A stretch of 64,000 nucleotides of DNA from the NCBI GenBank assembly GCA_031973235.1, contig DALYDM010000001.1, forward strand, positions 16,129-80,128, read 5' to 3'. This document shows, piece by piece, positions 14,473 through 37,331 of this stretch (within the stretch, counting starts at the first letter, position 1; each line of letters starts with the position of its first letter). The notes beneath the pieces were generated by a model. The model saw only the letters and a program-made list of their open reading frames with translations, was not told the DNA's origin and ran no database searches. This stretch comes from Minisyncoccota bacterium. Its GTDB lineage: Bacteria > Patescibacteriota > Minisyncoccia > Phycocordibacterales > UBA9973. The translations under genes and the position numbers were made by a program.

Positions 14473-14500
14473 TGTTTTGTAGCGTGATACACTTAACTTC

Positions 14501-15517: not shown

Positions 15518-15518
15518 T

Positions 15519-15547
15519 AAAAACCTCGCATTTCATGCGAGGTTTTT
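15519..15547. terminator. bidirectional rho-independent terminator
   Basis: aaaaacctcgcatttcatgcgaggttttt between convergent genes. Confidence 0.8.
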
Positions 15548-15548
15548 A

Positions 15549-16025: not shown

Positions 16026-16123
16026 ATTGAAAGTATAGTACTTTTGAAAACTTAATCAAATGTGTGAGAATAATCGATTTTTGCACAGTCATATAGTCAA
16101 AAAGTTTTATATACTAGTAGTAT

Positions 16124-16780: not shown

Positions 16781-16782
16781 TT

Positions 16783-17442
16783 ATGGATACTACACATTTT
16801 GATCTTTCAATAAAGTCATCTTCACTTAAAAATATCCCATTTGAGTTGTACCAAGTGTTTATGATTTTTGTTGTGCCGGTGACGTTGCTGTATTTTGGGA
16901 TTATACCCATAGAGTGGAGGTTTTTTGTACTTGCATTCTGTGCGCTTATGATTTATGGAATAATCCGAAAAGAAAAATGGAGTCTTGAGATGCTCGGTAT
17001 AAAAGAATTTCACACCGAAAAGGAACTCACTCCATATATCACTTTTGCATTGATGGGTATTTTTTTCATTATTGGCTTAGCAAAGATTCTTGGGATGCCT
17101 CCAAAGATTTCTACTGATAATGCACTTCACTTATTTTTACTTTTTATTCCTGTGTCTGCATTCCAACAATTTGCATATCAGGGTTTTCTTATGCCGATTC
17201 TCCACAGGGTGTATAGATCAAAGGTTAGAATTGTGTTTGTAAGTGCACTTTTGTTTACTTTTCTGCACATTATTTATCCAGACGCTGACGTAAATTTACC
17301 CTTGGCGTTTGTTGGTGGGATAGGTTTTTCGATGATGTATTTGCGTTACCCAAATCTCATTTTGATTTCAATTGTTCATGCGATATTTAATTTCACTGCG
17401 ATATTGTACGGTTTTTTTGTCATACCAAACTTATTAAAATAG
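16783..17442 (+). CDS. CPBP-family intramembrane protease-like (CAAX/Abi) membrane protein
   Basis: Polytopic, with FTFLH (FxxxH) and HAIFNF (HxxxN) motifs. The first EExxxR motif is degenerate (SAFQQFAYQGF), so catalytic competence is uncertain. Confidence 0.45.
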   Translation: MDTTHFDLSIKSSSLKNIPFELYQVFMIFVVPVTLLYFGIIPIEWRFFVLAFCALMIYGIIRKEKWSLEMLGIKEFHTEKELTPYITFALMGIFFIIGLAKILGMPPKISTDNALHLFLLFIPVSAFQQFAYQGFLMPILHRVYRSKVRIVFVSALLFTFLHIIYPDADVNLPLAFVGGIGFSMMYLRYPNLILISIVHAIFNFTAILYGFFVIPNLLK

Positions 17443-17459
17443 TATATACTTAACACATT

Positions 17460-17951
17460 ATGGGAATGGGAGAAATCGCACTATTGTTTGTTACATTTTT
17501 GCTTCTAGTTGGAAGTATGTTTATGACACTTATTCCAGCGCTTCCTGCGTTGCCGTTTATGTTTTTGATTGTGAGTGGGTATGCAATCGTGACAAAATTC
17601 ACCACTCTGTCAGCAGGGAACATGCTTATTCTTTTTGTCATAATGCTGGTCTCTTTATTGGTAGATATGCTTTCCGGAATTATTGGTGCAAAGTATGGTG
17701 GTGCAGGTAAAAAGTCATTGATATACGGATTTATTGGAATGCTTTTGGGTACAGTTATTATGCCGCCATTTGGTTCACTTTTTGGACTATTTGCAGGGGT
17801 GGTATTGTCGGAAATACTTGCATACAAGGACCACCACAAGGCTATTCGTGCCGCGACAGGTGCTGTGCTTGGAGTAGTGTTTGGAATCATGGTGAATTTT
17901 GCTCTCGCGTTTATTTTTATTGGAATGTTTGCATCGTTTCTTTATAAATAA
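17460..17951 (+). CDS. DUF456-like small membrane protein
   Basis: 163 aa, four helices, Gly-rich loops (GAKYGGAGKKS). Confidence 0.4.
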   Translation: MGMGEIALLFVTFLLLVGSMFMTLIPALPALPFMFLIVSGYAIVTKFTTLSAGNMLILFVIMLVSLLVDMLSGIIGAKYGGAGKKSLIYGFIGMLLGTVIMPPFGSLFGLFAGVVLSEILAYKDHHKAIRAATGAVLGVVFGIMVNFALAFIFIGMFASFLYK

Positions 17952-18006
17952 AAGTGGTGCATATGTGCTATACTATTAGTATTATTAGATACTAATCTAT
18001 ATTCTT

Positions 18007-18741
18007 ATGGAAACAGATACACGTTCGAAAGCATTGACGATATTCGGAATTATTCTTGGCGCAAGTATGATTGCAAGCGTGCTTATAGGAGCGGGTGTGT
18101 TCTATAAAATAAAATCATACGACAATGCTCTGTCTGTGACTGGTTCTGCAAAACGTGAAGTTACTTCAGATAAAGTGAAGTGGACTTCTAGTATTACTCG
18201 AACTGTTAAAATTTCTGGTCTAAAAAATGGCTACACACAAATGGCCAAAGACTTAGCTGATGTAAAAGCATTTTTTAAAGAAAAGGGAATTCCCGATGAG
18301 GCGATCACTATTTCTCCGGTGTTCATGAATGAAAACTGGCAACAATACGCAACCGCAGAAACAAAAGAATACAATCTTGTTCAAACATTTGAAATTCAGT
18401 CAGATGATGTTGTGAAGATTACTGATGTATCAAAGAATATTCAAACAGTTATCGACAAGGGAATAATTTTCCAAAGCAATTCTCCTGAATATTATTATTC
18501 AAAACTTCCAGAGATGCGTGTAGAGCTTTTGTCTGAAGCACTTGCTGATGCAAAGAATCGTGCAACAAAACTTGCTGAATCTACAGGAGGTAAGGTGGGT
18601 GCACTCAAATCTGCATCGTCGGGTGTGGTCCAAGTACTTACTCCAAACTCTACTGAAGTTTCGGATTATGGTTCATACGACACTTCAAAAATTCAAAAGG
18701 AAATCATGGTTACTGTCAAAGCATCATTTACTGTAAAATAA
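18007..18741 (+). CDS. SIMPL domain protein (DUF541, YggE-like)
   Basis: TM anchor then SVTGSAKREVTSDKV...ELLSEALADAKNRATKLAESTGGKVG, the SIMPL pattern. Confidence 0.7.
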   Translation: METDTRSKALTIFGIILGASMIASVLIGAGVFYKIKSYDNALSVTGSAKREVTSDKVKWTSSITRTVKISGLKNGYTQMAKDLADVKAFFKEKGIPDEAITISPVFMNENWQQYATAETKEYNLVQTFEIQSDDVVKITDVSKNIQTVIDKGIIFQSNSPEYYYSKLPEMRVELLSEALADAKNRATKLAESTGGKVGALKSASSGVVQVLTPNSTEVSDYGSYDTSKIQKEIMVTVKASFTVK

Positions 18742-19677: not shown

Positions 19678-19709
19678 AAACGCCACCAGGTTGTCCTGGT
19701 GGCGTTTCT
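19676..19709. terminator. bidirectional rho-independent terminator
   Basis: aaaaacgccaccagg-ttgt-cctggtggcgtttct between convergent genes. Confidence 0.8.
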
Positions 19710-20572
19710 CATAAATGAGCTTTCAACATCGAACGTATACAACTACTTCGCAAACGTCTTACTGCCTTCTCTTTAATTTGCCTCACGCGTTCGGGTGTAA
19801 GTTTAATTTTTTCCCCGATTTCGTCGAGTGTCATAGGAGGATACTCGTTTAATCCGAAGAAATATCTTAACACTTCAGCTTCACGCTCGGTAAGTTTCTT
19901 CAGTGCTCTATTGATATCTGTTCTCCTGGATGCATTGACAAGATTGTATTCGGCTGGTGCTTCCGTATCATTCTGTAGAATATCGAGAAGTGTTGTTTCT
20001 TCGCCGTCAATTGTTGGCTTATCAAGAGAAACTGAGTTGTGGAATAATAGAATAATCGCGGATGCAATTTCACTGTTTGACAAGTTGGTCAATTCTTTAA
20101 GTTCCTCGAGTGTTGGCTCCCGTTCATATTTCTGTTCAATTTTCATCGATGCATTACTTATCTTGTTCATTGCACCTATTCGATTTTGAGGAATTTTTAC
20201 GATTCTTGCCTGTTCAGCAATAGCTTGCATGATTGATTGACGAATCCACCATACTGCGTACGAGATAAATTTGAATCCGCGTGTTTCGTCGAAGCGTTTC
20301 GCAGCTTTGATCAAGCCAAAATTTCCTTCATTGATTAAATCCGGTAGGCTCAATCCTTGATTTTGGTATTGCTTTGCAACCGATACCACAAATCTTAGAT
20401 TTGCACGTACGAGTTTCTCAAGTGCCTTTTGGTCCCCGTTACGAATACATACAGCAAGTCGAACTTCTTCTTCTGCTGAAATCAATTCTTCTTTTCCGAT
20501 ATCTTGTAAGTATCTTTCAAAACTTGCAGATTCTCGATTTGTAATCGATTTTGTTATTTTGAATTGTCTCAT
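19709..20572 (-). CDS. RNA polymerase sigma-70 family factor (compact RpoD-like, copy 1)
   Basis: 287 aa with regions 1.2-2 (RYLQDIGKEELISAEEE...[59 protein letters not shown]), region 3 and a region 4 HTH ([23 protein letters not shown]). Confidence 0.85.
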   Translation of the reverse strand: MRQFKITKSITNRESASFERYLQDIGKEELISAEEEVRLAVCIRNGDQKALEKLVRANLRFVVSVAKQYQNQGLSLPDLINEGNFGLIKAAKRFDETRGFKFISYAVWWIRQSIMQAIAEQARIVKIPQNRIGAMNKISNASMKIEQKYEREPTLEELKELTNLSNSEIASAIILLFHNSVSLDKPTIDGEETTLLDILQNDTEAPAEYNLVNASRRTDINRALKKLTEREAEVLRYFFGLNEYPPMTLDEIGEKIKLTPERVRQIKEKAVRRLRSSCIRSMLKAHL

Positions 20573-26801: not shown

Positions 26802-28506
26802 ATTTACATTTTCAAGAATCACAGGACTTTCGCTTTTACTGTGTCTTATTACAGGTTTGCTTGTGATAAGACTTTTTTATTTGCAGGTACTTAGAGGAGA
26901 TGAATATAGTGAAGAAGTAAGTAATAACTATTCTGTTGAGGAATTGTCAAAATTTGATCGAGGTACAATATATACAAAGAAGAAGGATGGTACACTCGTG
27001 AGTGCGGCTACAACTGTGTCAGGATACACTCTTGTTGTTGATAAAAATTCAATAAATCTCTCACCAGAGAAACTATTTGAAATTATTAAGTCAGCGATTC
27101 CCGATGCAGATAAGAATTTTTTCGATAAAAAGATGAATTCAAAAGGAAGATATATTGATGTGGCAAAGCATGTTACTCAGTCTCAATATGATATGCTAAA
27201 TGAGCAAAAGATTAACGGGATTGCATTTCGAAAGGATAAGTGGAGGTTTTATCCCGGATCAACTCTTGCAGCGCGTACAATTGGCTTTGTGGCATTCAAA
27301 GGGAATTCACTTGTGGGACGATATGGGGTGGAGAGATTTTACAACGAAACCCTAACGTTGAATAAAAATTCACTATACAGCAACTTTTTTACTGAGGTGT
27401 TTTCTACTTTGCATGATTCAGTATTCAAAGAAGACAGTATCGAAGGAGACATTGTCACGACAATCGAACCATCTGTTACTCAATATCTCGAATCTACACT
27501 TTCAAAAACAATTGATAAATACAGTGCAGATGGTGCAGGTGCAATAGTCATGAATCCAAAAACTGGCGAAATATATGCGATGTCGTATTTGCCAACGTTT
27601 GATTTGAATGATTTTTCTTCAGTACAAAATGTATCCACTTTCAATAATCCACTTGTCGAAAATGTGTATGAGTTTGGATCTATTGTGAAGCCGCTTGTGA
27701 TGGCAGCTGGGCTCGATATGAACGCAGTACGACCAGATACAACATATATAGACAAGGGTGAGCTTACAATCAATACTGAAAAGATTCACAACTTCGACAA
27801 AAAAGCTCGAGGAAAAGCAACAATGCAAGACGTGCTCAATCAATCTTTGAATACAGGTATGGTGTTTGTGATGCAACAAATGGGGAAAGATAATTTCAAG
27901 AAATACATGCTTGCGTATGGAATAGGAGAAAAAACTGGTATTGATTTGCCAGGTGAAGTTTCTGGAATCACTACGAACCTCAAAAGTACTCGTGAAATTG
28001 AATTCGCCAATGCGGCATTCGGTCAGGGTGTCGCTATGACGCCAGTGGAAATAATCCGAGCCTTTTCTACACTTGCAAATGGTGGTGTCCCTGTGACTCC
28101 ACGTGTGGGTTCAATGATCAAAACCAAAGATGGTGAGGAAGTAAAAATTGAACCAACATACGGCTCACAACTTATTGCACAAAAGACAGCAGATGATATA
28201 ACCAAAATGCTTGTGACCGTAGTTGACAAAGGTCTCGGAGCAGGACAATACAAGAACGAACATTATAGTGTAGCTGCGAAGACTGGGACTGCACAGATGG
28301 CAATGGAAAATGGGCGAGGGTACTACGAAGACAGATATCTTCACTCGCTCTTTGGCTACTATCCTGCGTACAATCCAAAGTTCTTGGTGTTGATGTATGT
28401 GGTAAATCCAAAAGGTGTACAATATGCAGCAACCACACTTGCAGAGCCATTTTTCGATCTTTCAAAGTACTTGCTTAGTTATTACGATGTTGCACCGGAT
28501 AGATAA
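26791..28506 (+). CDS. ftsI: penicillin-binding protein FtsI-like (class B PBP)
   Basis: 571 aa with a TM anchor and SIVKP, SLNTG and KTGTAQ motifs. Confidence 0.85.
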   Translation: MSSKFTFSRITGLSLLLCLITGLLVIRLFYLQVLRGDEYSEEVSNNYSVEELSKFDRGTIYTKKKDGTLVSAATTVSGYTLVVDKNSINLSPEKLFEIIKSAIPDADKNFFDKKMNSKGRYIDVAKHVTQSQYDMLNEQKINGIAFRKDKWRFYPGSTLAARTIGFVAFKGNSLVGRYGVERFYNETLTLNKNSLYSNFFTEVFSTLHDSVFKEDSIEGDIVTTIEPSVTQYLESTLSKTIDKYSADGAGAIVMNPKTGEIYAMSYLPTFDLNDFSSVQNVSTFNNPLVENVYEFGSIVKPLVMAAGLDMNAVRPDTTYIDKGELTINTEKIHNFDKKARGKATMQDVLNQSLNTGMVFVMQQMGKDNFKKYMLAYGIGEKTGIDLPGEVSGITTNLKSTREIEFANAAFGQGVAMTPVEIIRAFSTLANGGVPVTPRVGSMIKTKDGEEVKIEPTYGSQLIAQKTADDITKMLVTVVDKGLGAGQYKNEHYSVAAKTGTAQMAMENGRGYYEDRYLHSLFGYYPAYNPKFLVLMYVVNPKGVQYAATTLAEPFFDLSKYLLSYYDVAPDR

Positions 28507-29635
28507 AAATCAAATACGAAATACAAAAGCGATTATTTCTCTAGATGTTATTAAACAAAATGCATTACACATACGGAGAATATGTGGTGGATCTGTAAAA
28601 GTGTGTGCAATAATCAAAGCAAATGCATATGGACACGGAATGAAAGAAGTCGCGTTTGCACTAGAAAAAAGTGTGAACTATTTTGGTGTTGCATTGGTGT
28701 GTGAGGGGAGAATGTTGCGCGATTCGGGGATTGAAACACCAATTTTAGTATTGGGAGCTATTGGCTCAGATGAGATTGAAAGTGCGTTGCTTTCTGGACT
28801 CACTATTACAGTTCCTTCAATAGAAAAATTGAATGAAGTAAATCAAAAAGGAATTGCATTAGGAATACTTCCAAAGATTCACCTCAAGATTGATACAGGA
28901 ATGGGAAGAATCGGTGTGCAATGGAATCGAGTTGGTGAATTTTTAAGAACCACAAAAAGAATGAATGATGCAAAAACAATAAACAGTGAGGGAATATATT
29001 CTCATTTTGCGGACAGTATGGATGAGGAATATACAAAATTACAGTTTGAAAGATTTGAAAAAGTAATTGCTTCTGCAAAGGAAATAAATTTAAATTTTGA
29101 ATGTATACATATTAGCAGTTCGCGTTCAACATTTTTGTATCCAGAATATAGAATGACAATGGTTCGACCGGGTGTTGCATTGTATGGAATTGAGCCAGAG
29201 TCAACATCAAATATTCTTCCAAAAGAATTTATTCCTGCATTGAAGTGGGTAACACAAATCACATATTTTAAAGTATTAAAGTGCGGGGATTATGTTGGAT
29301 ACGGAAGAACATATCAAGTGAAAGAAGAATATGAACGAATAGTGACTCTTCCTGTCGGCTATGCAGACGGATTCCCAAGACGATTATCAAACAAAGGATT
29401 TGTGCTAATTCGGGGTAAGAAATATCCCGTAGTTGGAAGAGTGTGTATGGATCAATGTATGGTGTCGCTCGGCAAAGATGGCGAAGGGTATGTGGGTGAT
29501 GAAGTGGTATTGATTGGAAGTGATGGTGCTGCATCAATTTCAGTGGTTGATATTTCAAATTACATTGATACCACTCCACATGAGGTTACTGTGTGTATTT
29601 CCGAGAGAGTTCCGAGAGTGTTTGAGAATAAATAG
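28487..29635 (+). CDS. alr: alanine racemase
   Basis: PLP-lysine motif AIIKANAYGHG and a C-terminal beta domain. Start is taken at ATG 28487 (MLHRIDKN), overlapping the ftsI stop by 20 nt. Confidence 0.85.
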   Translation: MLHRIDKNQIRNTKAIISLDVIKQNALHIRRICGGSVKVCAIIKANAYGHGMKEVAFALEKSVNYFGVALVCEGRMLRDSGIETPILVLGAIGSDEIESALLSGLTITVPSIEKLNEVNQKGIALGILPKIHLKIDTGMGRIGVQWNRVGEFLRTTKRMNDAKTINSEGIYSHFADSMDEEYTKLQFERFEKVIASAKEINLNFECIHISSSRSTFLYPEYRMTMVRPGVALYGIEPESTSNILPKEFIPALKWVTQITYFKVLKCGDYVGYGRTYQVKEEYERIVTLPVGYADGFPRRLSNKGFVLIRGKKYPVVGRVCMDQCMVSLGKDGEGYVGDEVVLIGSDGAASISVVDISNYIDTTPHEVTVCISERVPRVFENK

Positions 29636-29730: not shown

Positions 29731-29805
29731 GGCCCTATCGTCTAACGGTTAGGACATCGCCTTCTCAAGGCGGTAATCAGGGTTCGATTCCCTGTAGGGT
29801 CACCA
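29731..29805 (+). tRNA. tRNA-Glu (anticodon CTC), CCA encoded
   Basis: ggccctatcgtctaacggttaggacatcgcc-tTCTCaa-ggcggtaatcagggttcgattccctgtagggtcacca parallels bacterial tRNA-Glu (gtcccct tcgtctagagg...ccgcc cTTTCac ggcgg...). Confidence 0.8.
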
Positions 29806-29831
29806 TCTCGTGCTAGCACGAGAAGCATACA

Positions 29832-29858
29832 AAAACAGCCCACTTTGGGCTGTTTTTG
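29832..29858 (+). terminator. rho-independent terminator after tRNA-Glu
   Basis: aaaaacagccc-actt-tgggctgttttt. Confidence 0.75.
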
Positions 29859-29873
29859 TGATAAAATCTAAAT

Positions 29874-30389
29874 ATGCAAGAAAAATTTCCTGAAATAAAA
29901 AAAGAATCAGTACAACATTATAGTATTGGACAAAAGATACGCTCTGAAAATCTAGACGGTTCGTTTTGCGAATCTGAAATAGTGAATATTATAGATTCAC
30001 AAAAAGTGATTACTGTATTAGGGTATAACTATGAAATTAAGTGTCCGATACCTATACTGATATTAGACAAGAAAATATCTGGAAATCTAGCAGCCTATCA
30101 CCCCGAGTTGAATGTTATATTTGCATACAATGACACCTCGCCAGAAGTCATGCACCATGAAATTATTCACTCACTAGAAATGACTAAACAGATTCCAGAA
30201 CAGCTCAATATTTTTTATAAAAAAGTACTAGAGGTATTACCTGATAATTCAAATTTGCAGCCAAATTTTAGAAAAAACATCCACGAATTCGTTGCAGATG
30301 CTTACTCAAAAAATGGGTTAATAGAGACCTTGAAAAACAAGGGCTTATACGATGAGTTTATAAATCTCACAAGATATATATTTCAATAG
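29874..30389 (+). CDS. hypothetical protein with HExxH motif (putative zinc metallopeptidase-like)
   Basis: 171 aa; MHHEIIHSLE is the only recognisable element. It is the first gene after tRNA-Glu. Confidence 0.3.
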   Translation: MQEKFPEIKKESVQHYSIGQKIRSENLDGSFCESEIVNIIDSQKVITVLGYNYEIKCPIPILILDKKISGNLAAYHPELNVIFAYNDTSPEVMHHEIIHSLEMTKQIPEQLNIFYKKVLEVLPDNSNLQPNFRKNIHEFVADAYSKNGLIETLKNKGLYDEFINLTRYIFQ

Positions 30390-30406
30390 TAAGTCAATTA
30401 CCCACT

Positions 30407-30482
30407 GCTCGAGAAGGGTCGTTGTGATATTATAAAAAAATATTAAATAACCTTACAGGGTAACGAATCGAAAAGTTCTATC
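30407..30482 (+). repeat. direct repeat copy A (~76 bp promoter-like element)
   Basis: gctcgagaagggtcgttgtgatattataaaaaaatattaaataaccttacagggtaacgaatcgaaaagttctatc is ~80% identical to copy B at 31755-31830. It contains a TGn-extended -10-like tgtgATATTAT. Extra ctcgagaa(c/g)g units sit at 30482 and 30510. Confidence 0.6.
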
Positions 30483-30564
30483 TCGAGAACGCTCACCTTT
30501 TAGAGAGCGCTCGAGAAGCGTTGAATAAAGTCTACGTTTGTTATGAAAATGTTATAATAAAATT

Positions 30565-31743
30565 ATGTCTGACGAAAACCCACAATCAACTACAGTAAAT
30601 CACGAACACTCGATTATTCCTTTTGAGTGGGCAATAAAGAAAGTTTTAGGACCAACTTTTGATAATCTTGGTCTTGATATTCGTGCTGGGTATGAAAAAA
30701 CAAAAGAGAAGATATTTAAATCAGCAGAAAAAAAACTTAAACCAAATCAAAATAGTGGTAAAGCAAACCTACGAATAGCTTGGGACATTGTCACGCAGGC
30801 GAGTTTTACAGAAAGTGAAATTGGAGCAGAATACTTTGGAGGAATTCTTGCTGCATCAAAAACAGAAGATGGACAAGATGATACTGGTATTTATTATTTA
30901 AACATCACAAAATCACTTTCATCAAAACAATTATATCTTCATTATCTTTTATATAAATCTTTAAATAATCTTTTTGTACGTACTGAATCACTACATAGCT
31001 TGAATGTAGGCATGGGTTCAGAAATAAGTGGTAAAAGAATTTATTTTTATACACTAGAACTTCTAGATCTTGGCGTTAACATTGATACTGATTTTACAGC
31101 TCTTTCAAATAAAGGTTTAATTGGTGATTTTTGGGAAGTAATAACAAAAAAGATAAAACACCCTCTCACAAATAAAGAAGTTGAAATTCCCTGTGCTGTA
31201 TTTACGCCTACAACCTTAGGAATTCAAATGCTCGCAATCGCACAAAATAAATTAAAAGAATATCGAGAATTTAGTAAATCAGATTTTGGTACAATCTTAG
31301 ATATAAAAATTCCTGAATTTTGTGCCTTTTCTGCCGAAGAATTGTTAAAGATTTCTATGACTTCTAATGTTCAAATAATTGAGATAGACAAACCAATCTC
31401 AGAAGTTTTTGAATTTACAATAAATCCTGATAATACTCCGAAATGGATTGAGAATATCGTAGAAGAGAAGGTAAACTCGTCTCCAATAACTGTGGGTACT
31501 GAGTATTCAAATACTAAGAACGGCATTGAATGGACTATTTACACTTGTACGAAATTTGAAAAAGATAAAAAGTTTGAACTTAAACAAAAAGACGATTTCT
31601 ATCACGTAGAGTATATTTATGAAAAAATTTCTGACACTCGAACAAAGCTAACTTATCATGAGTGGATGGAAAATGATTCTGTTCTTGTAGAGCCTTTCGA
31701 AATGAAAACGCTTGAAAGGCTTAAAAAAGTGCTTGAGGTCTAA
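30565..31743 (+). CDS. Abi-alpha (DUF4393)-like N-domain fused to an SRPBCC/AHSA1-like C-domain (candidate abortive-infection/defence protein)
   Basis: The N-terminus (KKVLGPTFDNLGLDIRAGYEKTKEKIF...LYLHYLLYKSL) resembles Abi_alpha. The C-terminus (ISEVFEFTINPDNTPKWIENIVEEKV...KLTYHEWMENDSVLVEPFEMKTLERLKKVLE) resembles the SRPBCC ligand-binding fold. Both assignments are by eye. Confidence 0.35.
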   Translation: MSDENPQSTTVNHEHSIIPFEWAIKKVLGPTFDNLGLDIRAGYEKTKEKIFKSAEKKLKPNQNSGKANLRIAWDIVTQASFTESEIGAEYFGGILAASKTEDGQDDTGIYYLNITKSLSSKQLYLHYLLYKSLNNLFVRTESLHSLNVGMGSEISGKRIYFYTLELLDLGVNIDTDFTALSNKGLIGDFWEVITKKIKHPLTNKEVEIPCAVFTPTTLGIQMLAIAQNKLKEYREFSKSDFGTILDIKIPEFCAFSAEELLKISMTSNVQIIEIDKPISEVFEFTINPDNTPKWIENIVEEKVNSSPITVGTEYSNTKNGIEWTIYTCTKFEKDKKFELKQKDDFYHVEYIYEKISDTRTKLTYHEWMENDSVLVEPFEMKTLERLKKVLEV

Positions 31744-31754
31744 AGTTTATAGAC

Positions 31755-31830
31755 GCTCGAGAAGGGTTGTGATGGTATAATAAAAAAGCCTTAAATAACC
31801 TTATGGGGTAATGAACCACGGGGTTCTATC
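31755..31830 (+). repeat. direct repeat copy B (~76 bp promoter-like element)
   Basis: gctcgagaagggttgtgatggtataataaaaaagccttaaataaccttatggggtaatgaaccacggggttctatc contains a TGG-TATAAT extended -10 and is followed by a ~300-nt ORF-free region. Confidence 0.6.
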
Positions 31831-32130
31831 ACAAAAAGGCTCACTAAGATAGAAAGTCCCACCTAAGTAGGATTTTCGAGTGCATGGTGAAGTCACAGAG
31901 ATTTTTTCCTGACTCTCGCCAAGAAAAAATGTGAGACGGGGTCGCAAGTGTTTACGCCCACAGAATATGCAATGCATATGAGTAGACTTTGTAACTTGTG
32001 ACCTCACAGAACAAGCATGCGAAGCATTCAGTAAATCAGTGAGGATAGTATTTGTGACCGATGGCGCAATAGCTTTTCTGATATACGGTCATAAGTAAAA
32101 AACCACTGGTTTATACCAGTGGCTAGATAA
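31831..32130. ncRNA. candidate structured non-coding RNA or gene remnant (ORF-free, relatively GC-enriched)
   Basis: No ORF longer than 68 aa; several internal complementary segments; preceded by promoter-like repeat B; ends at a bidirectional hairpin ccactggtttataccagtgg (32103-32122). Strand not determined. Confidence 0.3.
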
Positions 32131-32137
32131 TGTTTGT

Positions 32138-32488
32138 TTAAAATGAACTATTATCAACGCATCTTAAGTTCCTTACTAATTGTTCCAACTTACCCTTGTT
32201 GATTACTCCATTACAATACTGAACATTCAAAGTATCACCCAACTTTATTAAGTCTCTTTTGTCATCAATACGACCGATGTAAAGAATAGTTAGTTGAAAC
32301 AATTGTTTTGTCTCAGGATTATTAAATTCGTAATGTTCAAACTTGGCATCTTTTCTGTAACCAACCAAAATGGCTTTGGCGTCTTTAGGATTTCTACATT
32401 CTTTAGCCTTGTTGATTACTGAAACAAATTCTACTAGCAACGCAACACATATGATAGTTGCTACTACTACTTCTGTAACTTTTTTCAT
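32138..32488 (-). CDS. small secreted/anchored protein (hypothetical)
   Basis: 116 aa, N-terminal hydrophobic segment, Cys-containing; terminator hairpin at 32103-32122 followed by T-run on the minus strand. Confidence 0.35.
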   Translation of the reverse strand: MKKVTEVVVATIICVALLVEFVSVINKAKECRNPKDAKAILVGYRKDAKFEHYEFNNPETKQLFQLTILYIGRIDDKRDLIKLGDTLNVQYCNGVINKGKLEQLVRNLRCVDNSSF

Positions 32489-32606
32489 TTTATGTAAGTT
32501 AGTGTTTAATATAATATATCATACTAATCACAAAAGTCAAGTATCAAATTTAAATAAAATTACAAGGCAATCAAACACAAAGTTTTATCTCTAGAAGGCT
32601 CACATG

Positions 32607-32640
32607 GATCTATAAATTCCACTTCTGTGGGATTTATAGA
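32607..32640. promoter_or_regulatory. 34-bp near-perfect palindrome (candidate operator) in divergent intergenic region
   Basis: ATCTATAAATTCCAC-ttct-GTGGGATTTATAGAT. A consensus-like sigma-70 promoter TTGACA-N16-TATAAT follows at about 32721-32748. Confidence 0.45.
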
Positions 32641-32774
32641 TTAGGAGATGTGAAGTCAAAAGTATATTTTTTTACAGATACCTTAGCTCATGTTCCATTG
32701 ATACTTCCTCCGTATATAAGTTGACAAATAATATATATAGTATATAATGTATTAAACCTAAAAAATCTAAAATC

Positions 32775-33050
32775 ATGGTAATAGTTCTAATGCGCATTCT
32801 TGAACTCGCCTATGTAGTATTTGTTACTGCATTGAAAGCGACAGGCTTCATTCTTTGGACATTATTTTTTTTCGAATTGAATTGGAAAATAATGTACTTT
32901 AAAGAAAAAATCTATACGGCCACTAATTTAGAAAATGCACGCGTCGGTTATACTAAGTACTACTTAAATGGAATCGATTGGATAAATGAAAAAGAGATTC
33001 CAGAATCTAGAAAAGAATTCGAAGAGGAATTAGATTTTCCATTAAAGTGA
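32775..33050 (+). CDS. small membrane protein (hypothetical)
   Basis: 91 aa with two hydrophobic helices; strong terminator at 33056-33086 (aaaaaaaccgctg-taattc-agcggttttta). Confidence 0.35.
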   Translation: MVIVLMRILELAYVVFVTALKATGFILWTLFFFELNWKIMYFKEKIYTATNLENARVGYTKYYLNGIDWINEKEIPESRKEFEEELDFPLK

Positions 33051-33215
33051 GTCAGTAAAAAAACCGCTGTAATTCAGCGGTTTTTATTATTCAAAATAAT
33101 AATGAATTAATGTTTGCTATTTCCGGAATCCAAGTCTTTGGCTCAGGATTCAATAAAACCACACCTGTGGGACTTTTTTGGTTCTGTGTGATATTGTGTA
33201 GAAAAATCTACAAAA

Positions 33216-33644
33216 ATGAAAAAACATAAATATGACCCCGCACTGGTAGAGCGAATACTTGCGGATGATGATTATGTTCTTCATTTGTTCGTAGTTCACT
33301 ACCTCAAAACACACGACAAATTATATTTGCCTAAAAGACGCAAAAATGGCGACTATACTATGAAGTGCATACTTCATAAAGAAAGAACACCATCGTTTAG
33401 ATACTCGAGTAAAAGAGGCATATTTAAATGTTTTGGGTGTGGAAGTGGAGGTAACATTCTCACTCTAATCGGGAAGTACTTTGAGCTATCATTTATAGGT
33501 AGTATTAAAAGAGCATTGCAAATGAAGAGTGTCCCTAACCACATCGAAAGTGGAAATAGTCACAAAGTCGAGACAGGTCAATTAAAAATAATTTACCCGC
33601 CACATGCTGATCCATTGAGCGGTGACTACAATCTTCCATTTTAA
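33216..33644 (+). CDS. stand-alone DnaG/phage-primase CHC2 zinc-finger domain protein (primase fragment)
   Basis: CILHKERTPSFRYSSKRGIFKCFGCGSGGNILTLIGKY is the zf-CHC2 signature. No TOPRIM or helicase domain follows; terminator 33650-33686. Confidence 0.7.
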   Translation: MKKHKYDPALVERILADDDYVLHLFVVHYLKTHDKLYLPKRRKNGDYTMKCILHKERTPSFRYSSKRGIFKCFGCGSGGNILTLIGKYFELSFIGSIKRALQMKSVPNHIESGNSHKVETGQLKIIYPPHADPLSGDYNLPF

Positions 33645-33792
33645 ACACAAAAAAAGCCGGACTGTGCAATGCACGGGCCGGCTTTATAAATACTGCGAAT
33701 CTCTCAAAATGAGAGAACAGTACCAGAAGTATACTTTTCTGTGAGAAAAATACAACTTTATTTTCCTTTGAGTTTAGTGATACAATCTTAGT

Positions 33793-34626
33793 ATGTCTAT
33801 ATCTATTATCAAATCAACAGGAGAAGAGCAGTCGTTTAGTAAAAAGAAATTGTGCATGTCTCTCGAGCACGCTGGTGCACCAAAGAAGCTCGCAGATACG
33901 ATTTGTAAGCGAGTGGAAGAGCATATCAATCCTGGAGCATCCACAAGTAAGATTTATCGAGAAGCACTTCGATATTTGATCAAAGAGAATCGCGAGCTTG
34001 CAGCTCGATATAGTATTCGTCGTGGTGTAGCGGCTCTAGGTCCTGCTGGGTTTGTGTTTGAGCAATACGTCGAGGCAATCTTGCAAGCATATGGATTCAC
34101 CACAAAGAGAAATGTCATGATGAAAGGTGAATGTGTGACGCATGAAGTCGATGTGATGGCAATGAAAGACGGTGTGCATTATTTTCTTGAAATGAAATAC
34201 CACAATCAAGTGGGAATCCGTACACATATAAATACTGTGATGTATGCGTATGCTCGATTGCTTGATATTTCTGCTGGTCTTGCAAAAAAAGAAAAGGATA
34301 CACATGAACACAAAATGTGGCTTATCACAAATACCAAATTCACTGATACTTCAATCAAGTATGCAAATTGTAAAGATGTAATTTTGACCGGATGGGATTA
34401 TCCAGAAGGGAATAGTCTTGAAGATATGATTGCATACAAAAAGCTCTATCCTGTGACAGTGCTCCCTTCGATATCTGGCGCAATGCTTGAAGAACTCGCA
34501 AGAAAAAATATTATTCTCGCACAAGATTTGCTCCCATATACTCCCCACGCACTTTCGAAACTCCTTATGATAGATGAGTATCGTGCTCAGAAAATTGCTC
34601 GAGATGTGGTAATGCTTATGAAATAG
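33793..34626 (+). CDS. ATP-cone domain fused to Mrr-like (PD-(D/E)xK) restriction endonuclease domain
   Basis: N-terminal ATP-cone (IIKSTGEEQSFSKKKLCMSLEHAG...ADTICKRVEEHI...ASTSKIYREALRYLIKENRELAARY). C-terminal Mrr_cat-like core (FEQYVEAILQAYGF...HEVDVMAMKDGVHYFLEMKYH, with D...E.K). Confidence 0.65.
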   Translation: MSISIIKSTGEEQSFSKKKLCMSLEHAGAPKKLADTICKRVEEHINPGASTSKIYREALRYLIKENRELAARYSIRRGVAALGPAGFVFEQYVEAILQAYGFTTKRNVMMKGECVTHEVDVMAMKDGVHYFLEMKYHNQVGIRTHINTVMYAYARLLDISAGLAKKEKDTHEHKMWLITNTKFTDTSIKYANCKDVILTGWDYPEGNSLEDMIAYKKLYPVTVLPSISGAMLEELARKNIILAQDLLPYTPHALSKLLMIDEYRAQKIARDVVMLMK

Positions 34627-34687
34627 AGGTCGATTGACCTCTATTTTGTTTTGTTGTATTCTGTGGTCAAACTAAAACGAACCTTAT

Positions 34688-35278
34688 ATGACACAGAACA
34701 ATAAAATTAGAATAATTTCATTTCCTGAAATGATCGAAATGGAATCACTCATGGATCCCTCGCTGCTGCTTCTGGGTCCAGTGCTCGGATCAAATATGGA
34801 TATTCTCGAGTATGTGAAAACACATATTGAGAATACTTTGTCAGATATTAGGTTTCCAGAGAATAAGAAACTTAATATTGTCACTACTCGTTATCTTGGA
34901 GAAAATTTCAACGATATCAATGAAGCTGAGTACAACGAGTGGGTTACTACAATGATAGATGTGCATGTAAAGCGTGATCCCGGAAGAGTTGTCCTGGTTA
35001 TGATACCAAGAGGTGATGGAACTGTAGTAAATCCGATTCGTGGATATGCACGTCACACATCGTTTGAGCTTGGGTATCTCCTTGGTGTGAATGCGCGATT
35101 ATCGGTGTATATCGAGAATGGCTTTTGTGAATACAAATACTATTACCATACAATTATGGGTATTAAGCCAGGCTTACCGATTTGGGCTGATCCGCTCCAG
35201 GCAATTCAAGATGCCCTTATGATGGTATTAAAAACAGACAGGGTATCGGAAAATAGTGGCAACACTGTTACATTCTAA
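34688..35278 (+). CDS. nucleoside 2-deoxyribosyltransferase / DNPH1(Rcl)-like (SLOG-type Rossmannoid) protein
   Basis: N-terminal beta strand KIRIISFP. C-terminal TSFELGYLLGVNARLSVY matches the [GS]x(x)E[LM]GYA catalytic-Glu motif (GMELGYALSQGK in NDT; GVGYELGRAVA in DNPH1). Lies 62 bp downstream of the ATP-cone/Mrr gene on the same strand; terminator 35285-35311. Confidence 0.5.
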   Translation: MTQNNKIRIISFPEMIEMESLMDPSLLLLGPVLGSNMDILEYVKTHIENTLSDIRFPENKKLNIVTTRYLGENFNDINEAEYNEWVTTMIDVHVKRDPGRVVLVMIPRGDGTVVNPIRGYARHTSFELGYLLGVNARLSVYIENGFCEYKYYYHTIMGIKPGLPIWADPLQAIQDALMMVLKTDRVSENSGNTVTF

Positions 35279-35370
35279 TTATTGAATCCCCGCGTAACAT
35301 GCGGGGATTTTGTTTGACTCATTCTTAAAATGTGTTATTATGTATACAAACGTTCAAAATAAAGAAAAAA

Positions 35371-36234
35371 ATGCGTCAATTGAAAATTACCAACCAGTTC
35401 ACAATTAGAGAATCTGATTCACTTACAAAGTATCTGAGTGACATATCTAAAGAGCCGTTACTTACTGTCGAGAGAGAAATTGAACTCACTGTCCGTATCA
35501 AGCTAGGCGATAAACGCGCACTTAATGAACTTGTAAAATCAAATTTAAGATTTGTGGTTTCTGTGGCTAAGCAGTATCAAAATCAGGGCTTGATGCTCGG
35601 TGATTTGATAAACGAAGGGAATCTCGGACTCATAAAGGCTGCAAGTCGTTTCGACGAAACTCGTGGATTTAAATTCATTTCATACGCTGTGTGGTGGATA
35701 CGTCAATGTATTTTGCAAGCACTCGCCGAACAGTCACGAATTGTAAGGCTTCCGTTAAATCAAATCGGAATGATTAACAAGATCAATAAAGCTTTTAGTC
35801 GTTTGGAGCAAGAGTTCGAACGAGAGCCAACAGATGACGAACTTGCATCTTGTTTGGATGTGTCCATTGATGATATTAGCTCAATGTCAAATCAATCAGG
35901 ACGAATTGTGTCACTTGACAGTTCTTATGAGCCGGGCGGTGAAGCTATTATTGAAAGCATTGCTTGTCCTGATGCGGGCCCTTCTCATCCGAGTAATAAT
36001 CTTATTCATGAATCACTTCAACATGAGATCAGACGTTTGCTTGGGTCGTTGACTCCGAGACAGGCAGGTGTGATTAATTTGTACTTCGGGCTCGATGGTA
36101 AACCTCTCACATTAGAAGAAATTGGTGAACGATACGAACTCACCCGTGAGCGAGTGCGTCAAATAAAAGAAACAGCACTTAAAAAACTCAAGAGTGATAG
36201 TCGTTCGAGAGTACTCAAAGCATTTATGAATTAG
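35371..36234 (+). CDS. RNA polymerase sigma-70 family factor (compact RpoD-like, copy 2)
   Basis: Start at internal ATG 35371 ([22 protein letters not shown]...), parallel to copy 1 (MRQFKITKSITNRESASFERYL...). Region 2 is nearly identical ([50 protein letters not shown]); regions 3 and 4 diverge. Confidence 0.85.
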
Positions 36235-36250
36235 ACGTAAAAATGGTATC

Positions 36251-36277
36251 AAAACCCCCGCATTTGCGGGGGTTTTT
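36251..36277. terminator. bidirectional rho-independent terminator
   Basis: aaaacccccgc-attt-gcgggggttttt. Confidence 0.85.
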
Positions 36278-37331
36278 ATTCTTCATCTTGACTTGGTTTG
36301 TCTATCGAAAGTACTGTGAGTTCTGGTGATGCACCTGTGATCCTCATAACATCTTTGTCTATTTTTTTGAGCTCTTTATTTGCAAGGTTGTATTGATTGA
36401 CTGTGGTTCCGAGTGCATTGCCGAGTTTTGTATTGTATTCTTCGTATGCTTTAACATGTTTTCCGAGTTCTTCAACACGCTTCACGATTTCTTTCGCTGA
36501 CTCTTCAATTTGCATTGCTTTTAATCCTTGAAGTACAGTTTGAAGATATGCCAGAAATGAAGTAGGAGAGACGATGATGACTTTGTATTTGCCCGCAGCA
36601 CGCTGGATGAGGTTGTCTGTATCTTCAGTGATTGCACCGACTTTACCAATGAGGAGATCATAATATATCGCTTCGTGTGGAATAAACATAAATGCAAAAT
36701 CCATTGTATTTTCCGATGGTCTAATATACTTTGAAGTTTCGACGATACGATTCTTCAAGTCGTTTACAAAAAGTTTTTCTAAACGATCTTTTTCTGTTGG
36801 ATCAGTTGTTTCTGAGAGTCTGTTGTAGTTTTCCAAAGAAAATTTTGAATCAATTGGAATTATCTTGTCTTTTACGAACACTACCGCATCAACAATTTCG
36901 TTGTTTGAAAATGTGTATTGCATTTGAAATTGTCCAGGAGGAAGAACATTTTTGAGGAGTGTTTCAAGATAATATTCTCCTAGAATTCCACGCTGTTTTG
37001 GATTTTTCAAAATGTCTTGGAGGTTTTTGAGTTGATCAGCAAAAGACACAACTTGCTTGTTGGTCTCATCGAGTCGTACGAGTTTCTCGGTGATATCCCG
37101 AATAATTTTTTGTGATTCGCCAGATTGATAGCGAATAGATTCGTTGACTTGTTTGTGGGATTCACCAAGTTTTTGGTCGACGGTGCGAGTGAGAGTGTCG
37201 AATTGTTGCAAGAGAAGCTGCATTGCGCGGTCGTCTTGCACAACAGGCTTATTTTTACGAGAAATTACGACAATAAGTCCGATGCCAAGTCCAAGTACAA
37301 CGATAGATAGAATTATAAGTGCGATTTGCAT
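36276..37331 (-). CDS. rmuC: DNA recombination protein RmuC
   Basis: 351 aa with an N-terminal TM, a long coiled-coil and the RmuC C-domain (FMFIPHEAIYYDLL...VIIVSPTSFLAYLQTV). Confidence 0.8.
   Translation of the reverse strand: MQIALIILSIVVLGLGIGLIVVISRKNKPVVQDDRAMQLLLQQFDTLTRTVDQKLGESHKQVNESIRYQSGESQKIIRDITEKLVRLDETNKQVVSFADQLKNLQDILKNPKQRGILGEYYLETLLKNVLPPGQFQMQYTFSNNEIVDAVVFVKDKIIPIDSKFSLENYNRLSETTDPTEKDRLEKLFVNDLKNRIVETSKYIRPSENTMDFAFMFIPHEAIYYDLLIGKVGAITEDTDNLIQRAAGKYKVIIVSPTSFLAYLQTVLQGLKAMQIEESAKEIVKRVEELGKHVKAYEEYNTKLGNALGTTVNQYNLANKELKKIDKDVMRITGASPELTVLSIDKPSQDEE

Follow-up and report, generated by a model that had tools for sequence, protein, structure and literature searches.

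A tRNA-Glu locus of a Patescibacteria genome holds a tandem array of small gene cassettes that close in a conserved ~95-nt element

Organization of the tRNA-Glu locus

The accessory region adjoining tRNA-Glu in the 64-kb window (the whole stretch of DNA analysed) extends from 29806 to about 33215, perhaps 33700, and is a tandem array of three to four small cassettes, each closing in a conserved element of ~95 nt. From the tRNA 3′ end (29805) to about 33.2 kb the array probably consists of mobile cassettes assembled by site-specific recombination. The cassettes recur in other orders and in other species, and the locus is therefore one at which genes are swapped in and out, not a single decayed island. 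The first-pass annotation had drawn one longer island (29874–36285) and pointed to the tRNA 3′ end as an integration site; accessory, horizontally exchanged DNA is indeed found there, but the right third of that island (33793–36234) is syntenic core. The features of the locus are as follows.

29731–29805, plus strand: tRNA-Glu(CTC), the array anchor (ARAGORN; Rfam tRNA, 61.8 bits).
29806–29859, plus strand: 5′ end of cassette 1, with a right-half box TCTCGTGCTAGCACGAGAAGCATAC (29806–29830) and then a hairpin and T-run (about 29830–29859).
29874–30389, plus strand: cassette 1 gene, 171-aa HExxH protein (motif HEIIH).
30402–30497, plus strand: element copy 1, closing cassette 1 (nhmmer E=3e-24; direct repeat D2).
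30498–31743, plus strand: cassette 2, with a box at about 30501–30527 (weak element-start match) and a 392-aa ORF (30565–31743).
31746–31845, plus strand: element copy 2, closing cassette 2 (nhmmer E=8e-23; repeat families D1 and D2).
31846–32100, no strand assigned: non-coding part of cassette 3, about 255 nt without ORF and with strong predicted folding.
32138–32488, minus strand: cassette 3 gene, 116-aa protein with an N-terminal hydrophobic helix (ORF list).
32552–32604, plus strand: element copy 3, partial, 3′ half only (nhmmer E=9e-7, profile positions 51–103; pattern with one mismatch).
32605–33215, plus strand: terminal segment (cassette 4), with a hairpin (about 32609–32640), a promoter, a 91-aa ORF, and a hairpin and T-run.
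33216–33644, plus strand: 142-aa ORF with a DnaG CHC2 zinc ribbon only (PF01807, E=7e-16; PHROG DNA primase families).
33793–34626: nuclease with ATP-cone, Mrr_cat and AF1548_C domains (Pfam).
35371–36234: RpoD-like second sigma factor (paralogue at 19709–20572).

The segment 29806–33700 has a GC content of 0.333 (versus 0.375 for the whole window), the lowest among all windows of the same size, and the largest tetranucleotide distance (0.252; maximum elsewhere 0.231). The anomaly ends at about 33.2 kb, and the GC content of 33793–36234 is 0.397. The intergenic spacers of the block from 29.8 to 36.3 kb had been described as longer and more AT-rich; composition is atypical in the left part of the block but not in the genes at 33793–36234.

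Judged by comparison with relatives, these right-hand genes (the ATP-cone/Mrr nuclease, a 196-aa gene and the sigma factor) are a conserved syntenic core. The block of nuclease, ~200-aa gene and RmuC gene is syntenic in loci L154 and L160, and the sigma factor is also present in L154, where RmuC is 88% and the nuclease 74% identical in amino acid sequence to those of the window; full-length orthologues of the nuclease number in the hundreds in Paceibacteria. Conserved synteny, which had been named as the observation that would speak against an island, thus holds for the nuclease, ~200-aa gene and RmuC part. The nuclease and sigma factor themselves were correctly recognized, the latter as an extra copy. 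The nuclease had been paired with an NDT protein as an island module, but the core synteny removes it from the island and the 196-aa ORF has no support as an NDT in Pfam, NCBIfam, PHROGs or PDB sequences.

The window's arrangement is recovered in independent assemblies at 99.5–100% identity. The order of cassettes 1 to 4 followed by the core genes is found at 99.99–100% identity in the independent runs SRR4000971 and SRR6410602, and assembly GCA_031972675.1 spans the junction from Alr through tRNA-Glu to cassette 1. That repeats have chimerically joined unrelated contigs is thus hardly credible, even with a metagenomic source and many contigs that break at the tRNA or at an element end, and arrays of the same design occur in dozens of unrelated contigs.

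Contents of the cassettes

Cassette 1 encodes a small ATLF/PPEP-like putative zinc metallopeptidase, in keeping with the HExxH protein noted earlier. Its 5′ box is of a type that also lies 3′ of tRNA-Glu in L140 and 3′ of elements in L081 and L142. The left crossover point would fall within TCACCA at the tRNA 3′ end (29800–29805), as suggested by homology with L081 that begins at 29795 and by junction alignments.

The 392-aa protein of cassette 2 has a weakly SRPBCC-like C-terminal domain (Polyketide_cyc2, Pfam E=3e-4), and its N-terminal 242 aa are 43% identical to a cassette protein of L132, which in turn has an Abi_alpha match (E=3e-5) that falls short of the Pfam threshold. The N-terminal domain may therefore be distantly Abi_alpha-like; the Abi-like fusion proposed earlier keeps this indirect link through the L132 homologue and has no direct match in Pfam or PADLOC.

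The non-coding part of cassette 3 has a predicted fold with z = −4.39 (31785–32130) and contains no ORF of at least 50 aa other than a 68-aa minus-strand GTG ORF; the interval 31740–32140 has no match in Rfam. The 116-aa ORF, which is followed by a minus-strand terminator at 32101–32124 (terminator scan), yields no family match in searches that included Pfam, PADLOC and PHROGs. Cassette 4 is the stretch of lowest GC content (0.308) and contains a predicted promoter matching the consensus at 12 of 12 positions (32721–32748), the 91-aa ORF (32775–33050), and the hairpin and T-run at about 33056–33090. It lacks a closing element, and neither the pattern scan nor nhmmer finds a further copy across the 64-kb window.

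The CHC2 ORF, identified earlier as a primase zinc-finger fragment, is an uncertain member of the array. Its GC content (0.381) is genome-like, it is recovered only from the same population, in an unchanged context, and it is missing at this position in L154 and L160, which have a minus-strand tRNA-Glu there. The defence-like character ascribed to the cassettes of the window finds weak support, with no significant PADLOC match among them; related units from other genomes carry clear defence cargo (Thoeris, SMODS).

The cassette-end element

The window contains three copies of the element, all on the plus strand. They include the repeats that had been described as duplicated and promoter-like, namely a direct repeat of 90 nt, at 30407 and 31755, with a partial third copy at 32550. 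Copy 1 consists of box A (GCTCGAGAAGGGTCG), an extended −10 motif (TGATATTAT), a tRNA-like 3′ part and a GCTCACC end (30491–30497). Copy 2 has a perfect extended −10 motif (TGGTATAAT) and GCTCAC at 31839–31844. Copy 3 retains GCTCAC at 32598–32603, and in place of its 5′ half stands the promoter region of the 116-aa ORF, with promoter-like sites on the minus strand from 32547 to 32511.

A pattern scan found 60 metagenome loci, about 50 of them with a full element, and 66 distinct copies align with a mean column identity of 74%; copies differ from each other by 20–25%. The motif TGnTAnnnT, of the extended −10 type, stands at a fixed place in 32 of the 66 copies, compared with 4% in shuffles, and would act as an outward-facing promoter. 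Of 79 right flanks, 28 have a YNCGAG box at a fixed offset (background 5%), and identical box classes occur 3′ of the tRNA and 3′ of elements.

In its last ~33 nt the element mimics the tRNA-Glu T-arm and acceptor end, closing in GCTCAC(C). The similarity is modest: the 33 nt match the tRNA-Glu 3′ end at ~70–75% identity, or about 25 positions in 33, and do not form an exact repeat, and the nhmmer profile of the element matches no tRNA at all. Aligned with the 3′ 31 nt of ten tRNA-Glu genes they give z values of 2.0–4.4 (3.1–4.4 in seven), whereas the Gln, Ile, Val, Ser, Arg and Pro tRNAs remain below 2. The search for a second copy of the tRNA 3′ end had come up empty, and a partial attR had been suggested as a target; all three repeats (30402–30497, 31746–31845 and the partial 32552–32604) are att-like in this sense, ending in GCTCAC(C) and aligning over their last ~33 nt to the tRNA-Glu 3′ end.

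The tRNA-like T-loop and ACCA-like end, the internal promoter-like motif and the frequent hairpin and terminator 3′ of the element raise the question of whether the element is primarily a small tRNA-Glu-like RNA gene (a possible ~100-nt RNA) or a processing or termination signal, with arrays arising by duplication and recombination being secondary. One base pair also changes from C-G to U-A, in 10 sequences. We consider this reading quite unlikely. The elements have no RNAalifold consensus fold (−0.03 kcal/mol, no compensatory pairs), no covariation support and no Rfam match, on most measures helices drawn by hand do not outperform shuffles, the tRNA T-stem is destroyed, and the precise exchange junctions described below are left unexplained. 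As a recombination site, the preferred reading, the element is much longer and more conserved than a serine integrase requires, and a subset carries an extra 5′ palindrome and tandem TGTCAC repeats, which points to additional regulatory or RNA roles.

Arrays and cassette exchange in other genomes

The 33 element-to-element intervals have a median length of 934 bp and mostly hold one ORF per unit, in the same orientation as the element; the longest ORF is co-oriented in 29 of 31 intervals, and the 116-aa ORF of cassette 3 is one of the two exceptions. A co-oriented tRNA-Glu (CTC or TTC) lies upstream in L097, L101, L111, L130, L132, L139, L140, L142 and L154 as well as in the window. No truly empty tRNA-Glu site, which had been proposed as a check, was found among relatives; in L154 and L160 the same locus is filled with other cassettes and inverted in orientation.

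Cassettes have moved between species. The HExxH cassette (window 29795–30519) is 97.5% identical in L081, where the PBP gene reaches only 65–67% nucleotide and 54% amino acid identity. On its right side it has five different neighbours in five contigs, diverging directly after GCTCAC(C), and on its left two (the tRNA or another element), converging at TCACCA. A 222-aa cassette common to L087 and L132 (94.8% identity over 923 nt) has the same boundaries in both. Across the three cassette or unit families mapped, every breakpoint is at TCAC^C, and in every shared cassette the element accompanies the gene upstream of it, never the one downstream.

These patterns bear on two alternatives. In the first, there is no dedicated recombinase, the elements are promoter or regulatory regions, and cassettes are shuffled by ordinary homologous recombination. 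The fixed TGnTAnnnT motif, operator-like palindromes upstream in a subset of elements and a window without recombinase would suit it, but all mapped breakpoints lie in one 5-nt stretch where the element or tRNA ends rather than along the element, copies diverging by 20–25% are poor substrates, the tRNA serves as left junction with only about 25 of 33 nt in common with the element, and the element is always found with the upstream gene; we regard it as unlikely. The second is the model of the first-pass annotation, a single ~6.4-kb tyrosine-integrase island at tRNA-Glu, probably degraded, that has since lost its integrase and distal att repeat. The tRNA 3′ location, low GC content and orphan genes agree with it, and no integrase is present. 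However, no tyrosine integrase is among the 25 most frequent Pfam families near such arrays, three internal att-like elements subdivide what remains once the syntenic core at 33793–36234 is set aside, and individual cassettes occur separately and in other orders elsewhere. The synteny in L154 and L160 and the independent distribution of the cassettes largely refute this model, which we consider very improbable.

A candidate recombinase

In the reading we favour, a cassette would consist of a 5′ box (YNCGAGAAG-type), often then a terminator, usually one co-oriented gene, and the ~95-nt element at the 3′ end, and would be inserted or exchanged by a crossover inside TCAC^C; the exact crossover dinucleotide is deduced from the junctions. 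TCAC^C occurs where the true tRNA ends and likewise closes each resident element, so that new units could stack behind the tRNA and swap between genomes.

The most likely catalyst is a large serine recombinase (Resolvase, Recombinase and Zn_ribbon_recom domains), which is the sole recurrent recombinase near the arrays and the top Pfam family among 150 neighbouring ORFs; no tyrosine integrase is among the 25 most frequent families. In all nine loci that carry it, the gene lies on the opposite strand, upstream of an element and proximal to the tRNA; these are larger units (3–10 kb) from other genomes that share the cassette design. Among solved structures, SPbeta SprA and the TP901-1 integrase are closest to it. 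No homologue is found in the 64-kb window and no recombinase of any kind is annotated between 24 and 42 kb; the local array may therefore be frozen. The recombinase of larger units would act in trans on units that lack one, such as those of the window. Among the fetched loci, no contig has the terminal overlap of a circular or excised form. Serine integrases of the canonical type act on attP and attB and on no other pair of sites; repeated insertion at hybrid sites would need a relaxed, Ccr-like specificity, as this reading assumes.

We tentatively propose, as a possibility that falls short of probable, that Patescibacteria have an integron-like cassette system run by this serine recombinase, with tRNA-Glu as the dock, the element as recombination site (and in about half of the copies also an outward promoter), and a cassette-borne recombinase mobilising in trans, within and between species, the single-gene cassettes that lack one. 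If true, such a cassette system would be previously undescribed and one of the principal ways in which minimal Patescibacteria genomes acquire genes.

Relationship to known systems

Integrons (IntI, attI and attC) likewise have ~1-kb, mostly single-gene, co-oriented cassettes with the recombination site at the 3′ end, a crossover at its very end that leaves the site attached to the upstream gene, cassettes common to several species and one fixed chromosomal anchor. Here, however, a tRNA replaces attI, no IntI-type tyrosine recombinase is found beside the array (24–42 kb) or among the 25 top Pfam families, the site is conserved in sequence and forms no attC-like folded palindrome, many elements carry the promoter-like motif, and the candidate recombinase is cassette-borne.

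The array resembles islands of the Islander type in starting at the TCACCA of tRNA-Glu and in having units with tRNA-like ends. The integrase expected inside such an island beside att is absent from the window's array; the larger related units elsewhere carry serine recombinases. Tycheposons of Prochlorococcus, in the parts of the source drawn on here, are similarly stacked at one tRNA, where successive integrations push older ones inward and leave islands with remnants, partial tRNA copies, and defence and niche cargo (Hackl et al., 10.1101/2020.12.28.424599). They differ in being larger, often with replication modules, and in their tyrosine recombinases (910 of 937 elements), and those parts describe no conserved long cassette-end element.

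SCC and SCCmec elements at rlmH share serine recombinases (Ccr), insertion into a conserved gene at its 3′ end, tandem arrays, short direct repeats, pseudo-SCC units without recombinase, and defence cargo (PMC11470126, PMC3146451). Their target is a protein gene, the elements measure tens of kb with att repeats of about 15–20 bp, and they have no conserved 95-nt element or outward promoter; a Ccr-like relaxed specificity is assumed here.

The closest parallels are these SCC elements and the ssrA islands of Dehalococcoides (McMurdie et al. 2011, PMC3146451); the latter lie in tandem directly downstream of the t(m)RNA gene in a low-GC, strain-variable locus, each bounded by the gene 3′ end or a direct repeat with conservation beyond the repeat (about 85 bp). 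A CcrB-like large serine recombinase is encoded on the reverse strand beside attL, and some islands without an integration module are presumed to be mobilised in cis or in trans. All of these traits have counterparts here: tandem, repeat-bounded units at one RNA gene, a low-GC locus with content that varies between strains, a reverse-strand, tRNA-proximal serine recombinase (in the nine related loci, not in the window) and units without one. The ssrA islands differ in their tmRNA target and host, in their size (10 kb or more, against mostly ~1-kb single-gene cassettes here), in having a 20-bp target copy in place of our ~95-nt element, which includes a conserved 5′ box and a promoter-like motif, and in a second small serine recombinase (DsiA/CcrA-like), of which none is seen here. 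A system of this build has already been published; the cassettes of the Patescibacteria arrays have an integron-like size.

Organization of the tRNA-Glu locus

The stretch directly downstream of tRNA-Glu(CTC) is a multi-cassette array with recognizable att-like elements, rather than the single degraded island (29874–36285) proposed in the first-pass annotation, although most of the factual observations made there hold. The window has a low GC content of 0.375 and is of the Patescibacteria/Paceibacteria genome type. The mraZ, rsmH, ftsL, PBP and alr genes are all located upstream of tRNA-Glu.

Features of the tRNA-Glu locus, with the sigma factor paralogue located elsewhere in the window
19709–20572, minus strand: sigma factor paralogue
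29731–29805, plus strand: tRNA-Glu(CTC)
29874–30389: 171-aa HExxH protein
30565–31743: 392-aa protein
31744–32137: ~390 nt without a convincing ORF
32138–32488, minus strand: 116-aa ORF
32775–33050: 91-aa ORF
33216–33644: ORF containing only a DnaG CHC2 zinc ribbon
33793–34626: nuclease-like protein with ATP-cone, Mrr_cat and AF1548_C domains
34688–35278: 196-aa ORF with no family
35371–36234: RpoD-like sigma factor
36276–37331, minus strand: rmuC

Composition divides the 29.8–36.3 kb interval into an atypical left part and a right part that is not. The GC content of 29806–33700 is 0.333, the lowest among same-size windows of the 64 kb, and this segment has the greatest tetranucleotide distance to the whole window, whereas 33793–36234 has a GC content of 0.397.

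PADLOC, NCBIfam and PHROGs searches with the window cassette proteins gave nothing significant apart from the DnaG zinc ribbon, and the label 'defense island' was dropped for the window on these grounds; an exact-protein look-up with the zinc-ribbon ORF returned only the same context. The 392-aa protein has a weakly SRPBCC-like C-terminal domain and an N-terminal domain in common with a cassette protein of the metagenome contig L132 that is itself a weak Abi_alpha match, such that its description as 'Abi-like' has indirect but no direct support. The designation 'NDT' for the 196-aa ORF finds no support, as this protein has neither a family nor a PDB sequence match.

The non-coding part of cassette 3, the unit containing the 116-aa gene (31846–32100, ~255 nt), has no ORF and a relatively high GC content, and when folded as 31785–32130 has a z-score of −4.39, with 0 of 100 shuffles equally stable. 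It may represent a non-coding RNA or a junction that has decayed. Rfam searches of 28–38 kb, and of 31740–32140 with lax filters, matched tRNA alone, and a search of this part for inverted tRNA or element remnants gave nothing beyond two short minus-strand GGTCACAA motifs (~32002 and ~32058), which are not significant.

An alanine racemase gene (28484–29635) lies between the PBP gene and tRNA-Glu and is missing at that position in the related contig L154. Its best species-level match (59% identity) is in a Candidatus Nomurabacteria MAG, followed by matches of 45–46% in Saprospiraceae, Dojkabacteria and other Patescibacteria, and of ~40% in Chloroflexi; it may be a lineage-specific acquisition. 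The species representative with the 59%-identical protein has no synteny here, and no tRNA-Glu at that place.

A conserved element resembling the 3′ end of tRNA-Glu

The duplicated promoter-like repeats noticed at first pass are real. They form a 90-nt direct repeat (30407–30496 and 31755–31844, 77% identity) with a partial copy at 32550–32603, and correspond to a widespread conserved element. A metagenome scan with a degenerate pattern of 22 nt, taken from the 3′ part of the element, yielded 60 contigs. The complete element is present in ~50 of them, and a handful are GC-rich matches that arose by chance; the profile derived from these contigs identifies 113 copies across the collected loci. 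The profile matches three copies only in the window, all on the plus strand and within the low-GC region. The consensus of 66 distinct copies (74% mean column identity) is GC[T/A]CGAGAAGGGTCGTTnTGATAnnnTAAAA…AATAAGCCTTACnGGG[T/C]AATGAA…GGTTCTATCTCGAGAAGGCTCAC[C/A]A, and an extended −10 motif (TGnTAnnnT) is present at one fixed position in 32 of the 66, compared to 4% of shuffles. A scan of viral contigs gave no match to the element, and so no grounds for regarding the units as catalogued phages.

The final ~33 nt of the element can be aligned with the final ~31 nt of tRNA-Glu (AATCAAAAGGTTCTATCTCGAGAAGGCTCACCA against AATC--AGGGTTCGATTCCCTGTAGGGTCACCA). The z-scores are 2.0–4.4 over ten tRNA-Glu genes (3.1–4.4 in seven), and six other tRNA species score below 2. 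The window thus contains three diverged copies of the tRNA 3′ end, where a second copy had previously been reported missing. An nhmmer search of tRNAs with the element profile gave no matches and the pairwise significance is limited to the 3′ part, and we therefore dropped the term 'full-length pseudo-tRNA' for '3′-end mimic'. A structured-RNA reading was also set aside: RNAalifold gives no consensus fold, there is no Rfam match, and a hand-drawn acceptor-like helix and hairpin has only one covarying pair, with most measures not above shuffles.

An additional conserved 5′ extension, consisting of a palindrome (GTTACA-N6-8-TGTAAC) followed by a tandem TGTCACTTT-TGTCACTTTTT, is found in ~21 of 72 element copies (e.g. 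L111 ~400–470, L113 ~9370–9440, L115, L129 and L132 ~3020–3090). This putative operator-like or extra recombinase-binding module is missing from the window copies. An element that is last in line, or tRNA-Glu itself in that position, is followed by a terminator hairpin whose stem takes in its 3′ end (…G[G/C]TCACAA…hairpin…TTGTGA[C/G]C; L113 9538–9590, L153, L150, L137, L130 4137–4190, L089 670–720, L128 and L154 8340–8400), and which looks like the native flank of an unoccupied site. Elsewhere in the window, a tRNA-Gln (6189–6260) is followed by ~4 kb of low-GC DNA (0.33–0.36) encoding a chitin-synthase-like GT2 glycosyltransferase, a polysaccharide deacetylase and an unannotated 329-aa protein; the element is absent from 6189–10239.

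Arrays anchored at tRNA-Glu

Many loci contain two to five co-oriented element copies, with copy-to-copy intervals ranging from 83 to 7003 bp (n = 33, median 934 bp), and of the 31 intervals that include an ORF of ≥60 aa, 29 have their longest ORF in the same orientation as the elements. A co-oriented tRNA-Glu (CTC or TTC) is located upstream in the window and in L097, L101, L111, L130, L132, L139, L140, L142 and L154; most remaining loci end before any tRNA could be reached. The sequences following tRNA-Glu and those following the elements fall into the same few classes, such as (A/T)CTCGTGCTAGCACGAGAAGCATAC followed by a terminator. Of 79 distinct right flanks, 28 have a YNCGAG box at a fixed offset (background 5%), and two palindromic hexamers, CTCGAG on the left and CNCGAG on the right, are roughly symmetrical about the position TCAC^C, a layout that would fit a dimer-bound site of ~40 bp. 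Two contigs (L115 387–675 and L149 4179–4467) have three head-to-tail element copies 8–17 nt apart with no gene, which suggests that an element and spacer can act as a minimal cassette.

Most of 29 inter-element proteins searched against Pfam have no family. Those assigned are small enzymes (two HD proteins, a histidine phosphatase, an LMW phosphatase, and NUDIX, UbiA, LCM and DnaJ-domain proteins); one further protein is Abi_alpha-like and there are a few PADLOC candidates (PD-T7-1, PD-T7-5). Contig L081 has a 7-kb inter-element unit (11639–18741) with a fatty-acid/polyketide-like set of genes (KAS III, an AMP-binding enzyme, an epimerase, SRPBCC and an AurF-like oxygenase), and its fourth element directly adjoins rlmH, a SPOUT methyltransferase gene that is the SCC target in staphylococci.

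Cassette exchange at a precise junction

The exact 171-aa HExxH protein is encoded on 12 contigs. L081 and the window have only 29795–30519 in common, with 97.5% identity over 726 nt, although their PBP genes share 65–67% nucleotide and 54% amino-acid identity, which indicates inter-species transfer of the cassette. At its left junction the cassette is preceded by the true tRNA in the window and by a different element in L081, and the two converge at TCACCA. On the right, five unrelated sequences (window, L081/L085, L087, L088 and L089) follow the element of the cassette itself, parting directly after GCTCAC(C). A 222-aa cassette common to L087 and L132 (94.8% over 923 nt) has the same boundaries in both, beginning with TTTTAGAG directly after …ACC and ending at its own …GCTCAC. 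Larger units in L081 and L105 have near-identical terminal elements and different sequences directly after GCTCACCA.

These junctions place the element at the 3′ end of the cassette of its upstream gene and the crossover within ~5 nt (TCAC^C). Homologous recombination between the 75–80%-identical repeats would not give such precise junctions. Site-specific insertion and exchange at TCAC^C is thus well supported by the sequence comparisons.

A 62%-identical HExxH homologue in L161 (9410–10000) is located just after a tRNA gene split by a group I intron (RF00028, 70.8 bits), and ~200 nt beyond lies a direct repeat of 15 nt (CCCTACCTCCCGAGC) matching the 3′ end of this tRNA. Here too the first gene to follow a tRNA att-like repeat belongs to the HExxH family, but the tRNA is a different one.

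A candidate large serine recombinase

All-versus-all clustering of ORFs in the loci reveals one recurrent recombinase (~425–485 aa), with the Resolvase, Recombinase and Zn_ribbon_recom domains of a large serine recombinase and with SPbeta SprA/YokA and TP901-1 integrase as its nearest solved relatives. It is present in nine loci (the L132 and L140 copies are at 244–1515, minus strand, and 7443–8897), and in all nine it is situated at the tRNA-proximal end of a 3–10-kb unit, on the strand opposite the elements; all nine units end with an element, which has the 5′ extension in five. The units also contain an N6/N4 DNA methylase, an S24 (LexA/CI-like) protein and an HTH/terS-like protein, with cargo including Thoeris (ThsA-macro, ThsB-TIR) and SMODS nucleotidyltransferases. 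When 150 ORFs located no more than 7 kb from an element were assigned to Pfam families, the most frequent were Resolvase (6), N6_N4_Mtase (5), Recombinase (5), Zn_ribbon_recom (5) and Peptidase_S24 (4), and the list of 25 families includes no tyrosine integrase. The best-supported candidate for catalyzing the exchange is this large serine recombinase. No homologue is encoded in the 64-kb window, so the window cassettes are either mobilized in trans or currently immobile. No circular contigs were found among the collected loci.

Relationship to other systems

Patescibacteria (CPR) have tiny genomes with few recognized mobile elements, and little is understood of the way in which they acquire accessory and defense genes. 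A concrete, testable mechanism would be supplied by a conserved docking locus, at which kb-sized single-gene cassettes are exchanged at a precise point, some being 95–98% identical between species with ~67% identical core genes. The ~95-nt element profile offers a simple handle for cataloguing the flexible gene pool of this uncultured group directly from metagenomes. Should the associated large serine recombinases recognize both tRNA-Glu and the element junctions and be relaxed in their choice of partner, they would enlarge the small set of Ccr-like integrases and possibly interest genome engineers.

The design of the array matches that of SCC elements at rlmH and of the serine-recombinase tandem islands at the Dehalococcoides tmRNA gene. 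The latter are bounded by ssrA or its 20-bp repeat, with a CcrB-like integrase on the reverse strand beside attL, extra conservation around the repeat, and some islands without integration modules (PMC3146451). Tycheposon arrays are alike in 'push-in' stacking at a tRNA. The array resembles integrons in unit size, orientation and the logic of a site at the 3′ end, but lacks both defining features, the IntI recombinase and folded attC sites. A literature search of limited extent returned no account of the element or of such arrays in Patescibacteria, which does not prove novelty.

The right boundary of the accessory locus

The accessory locus at tRNA-Glu spans 29806 to ~33215, possibly 33700, correcting the annotated island boundary. 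The nuclease gene (33793–34626) has 361 homologues at E ≤ 1e-10, and the best 120 of these are nearly all full-length with 50–97% identity, the pattern expected of a vertically inherited Paceibacteria gene. L154, with a 74%-identical nuclease orthologue, is collinear with the window across ~20 kb. Its upstream side contains the sigma paralogue, PBP, GreA, aminoacyl-tRNA synthetase, MraZ, RsmH, FtsL and PBP genes followed by a short variable stretch, and its downstream side the nuclease, a 206-aa gene, sigma, RmuC (88% aa identity), ExoX, YqeY, a holin-like gene, Obg and GatB (88%). L160 (nuclease 73% identical) has the nuclease, a 194-aa gene and RmuC. This synteny is decisive and places 33793–36234, with the nuclease, the 196-aa gene and the second sigma factor, in the core and not in the cargo. 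The 196-aa protein has weak but significant homology to the L160 194-aa protein (E=6e-8) and no significant similarity to the 206-aa protein at the same place in L154. It is only 26% identical to its L160 counterpart, its position being conserved and its evolution very fast.

No empty tRNA-Glu site was found in relatives. In both L154 and L160, the nuclease gene is directly preceded by tRNA-Glu on the minus strand, and in L154 another 1.3-kb cassette and one element copy lie between tRNA-Glu and the PBP gene; the same locus thus holds different DNA, inverted relative to the window. In these two closest relatives the inversion, relative to the core genes on either side, involves the tRNA-Glu with its cassettes (window 29731–33700; L154 8399–9907, L160 1–30). 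The downstream flank of the metagenome contig L089, tried as a marker of the right end of the array, has no match in the window. The PBP stop codon in L154 is directly adjoined by an inverted GGTCACCA-like sequence, located at the far end of the array.

The two RpoD-like sigma factors (19709–20572, minus strand; 35371–36234, plus strand) are ~287 aa each. L160 has no sigma copy between its ~195-aa gene and rmuC. Both have orthologues in L154 (3–485 and 11617–12477), and the duplication is therefore old.
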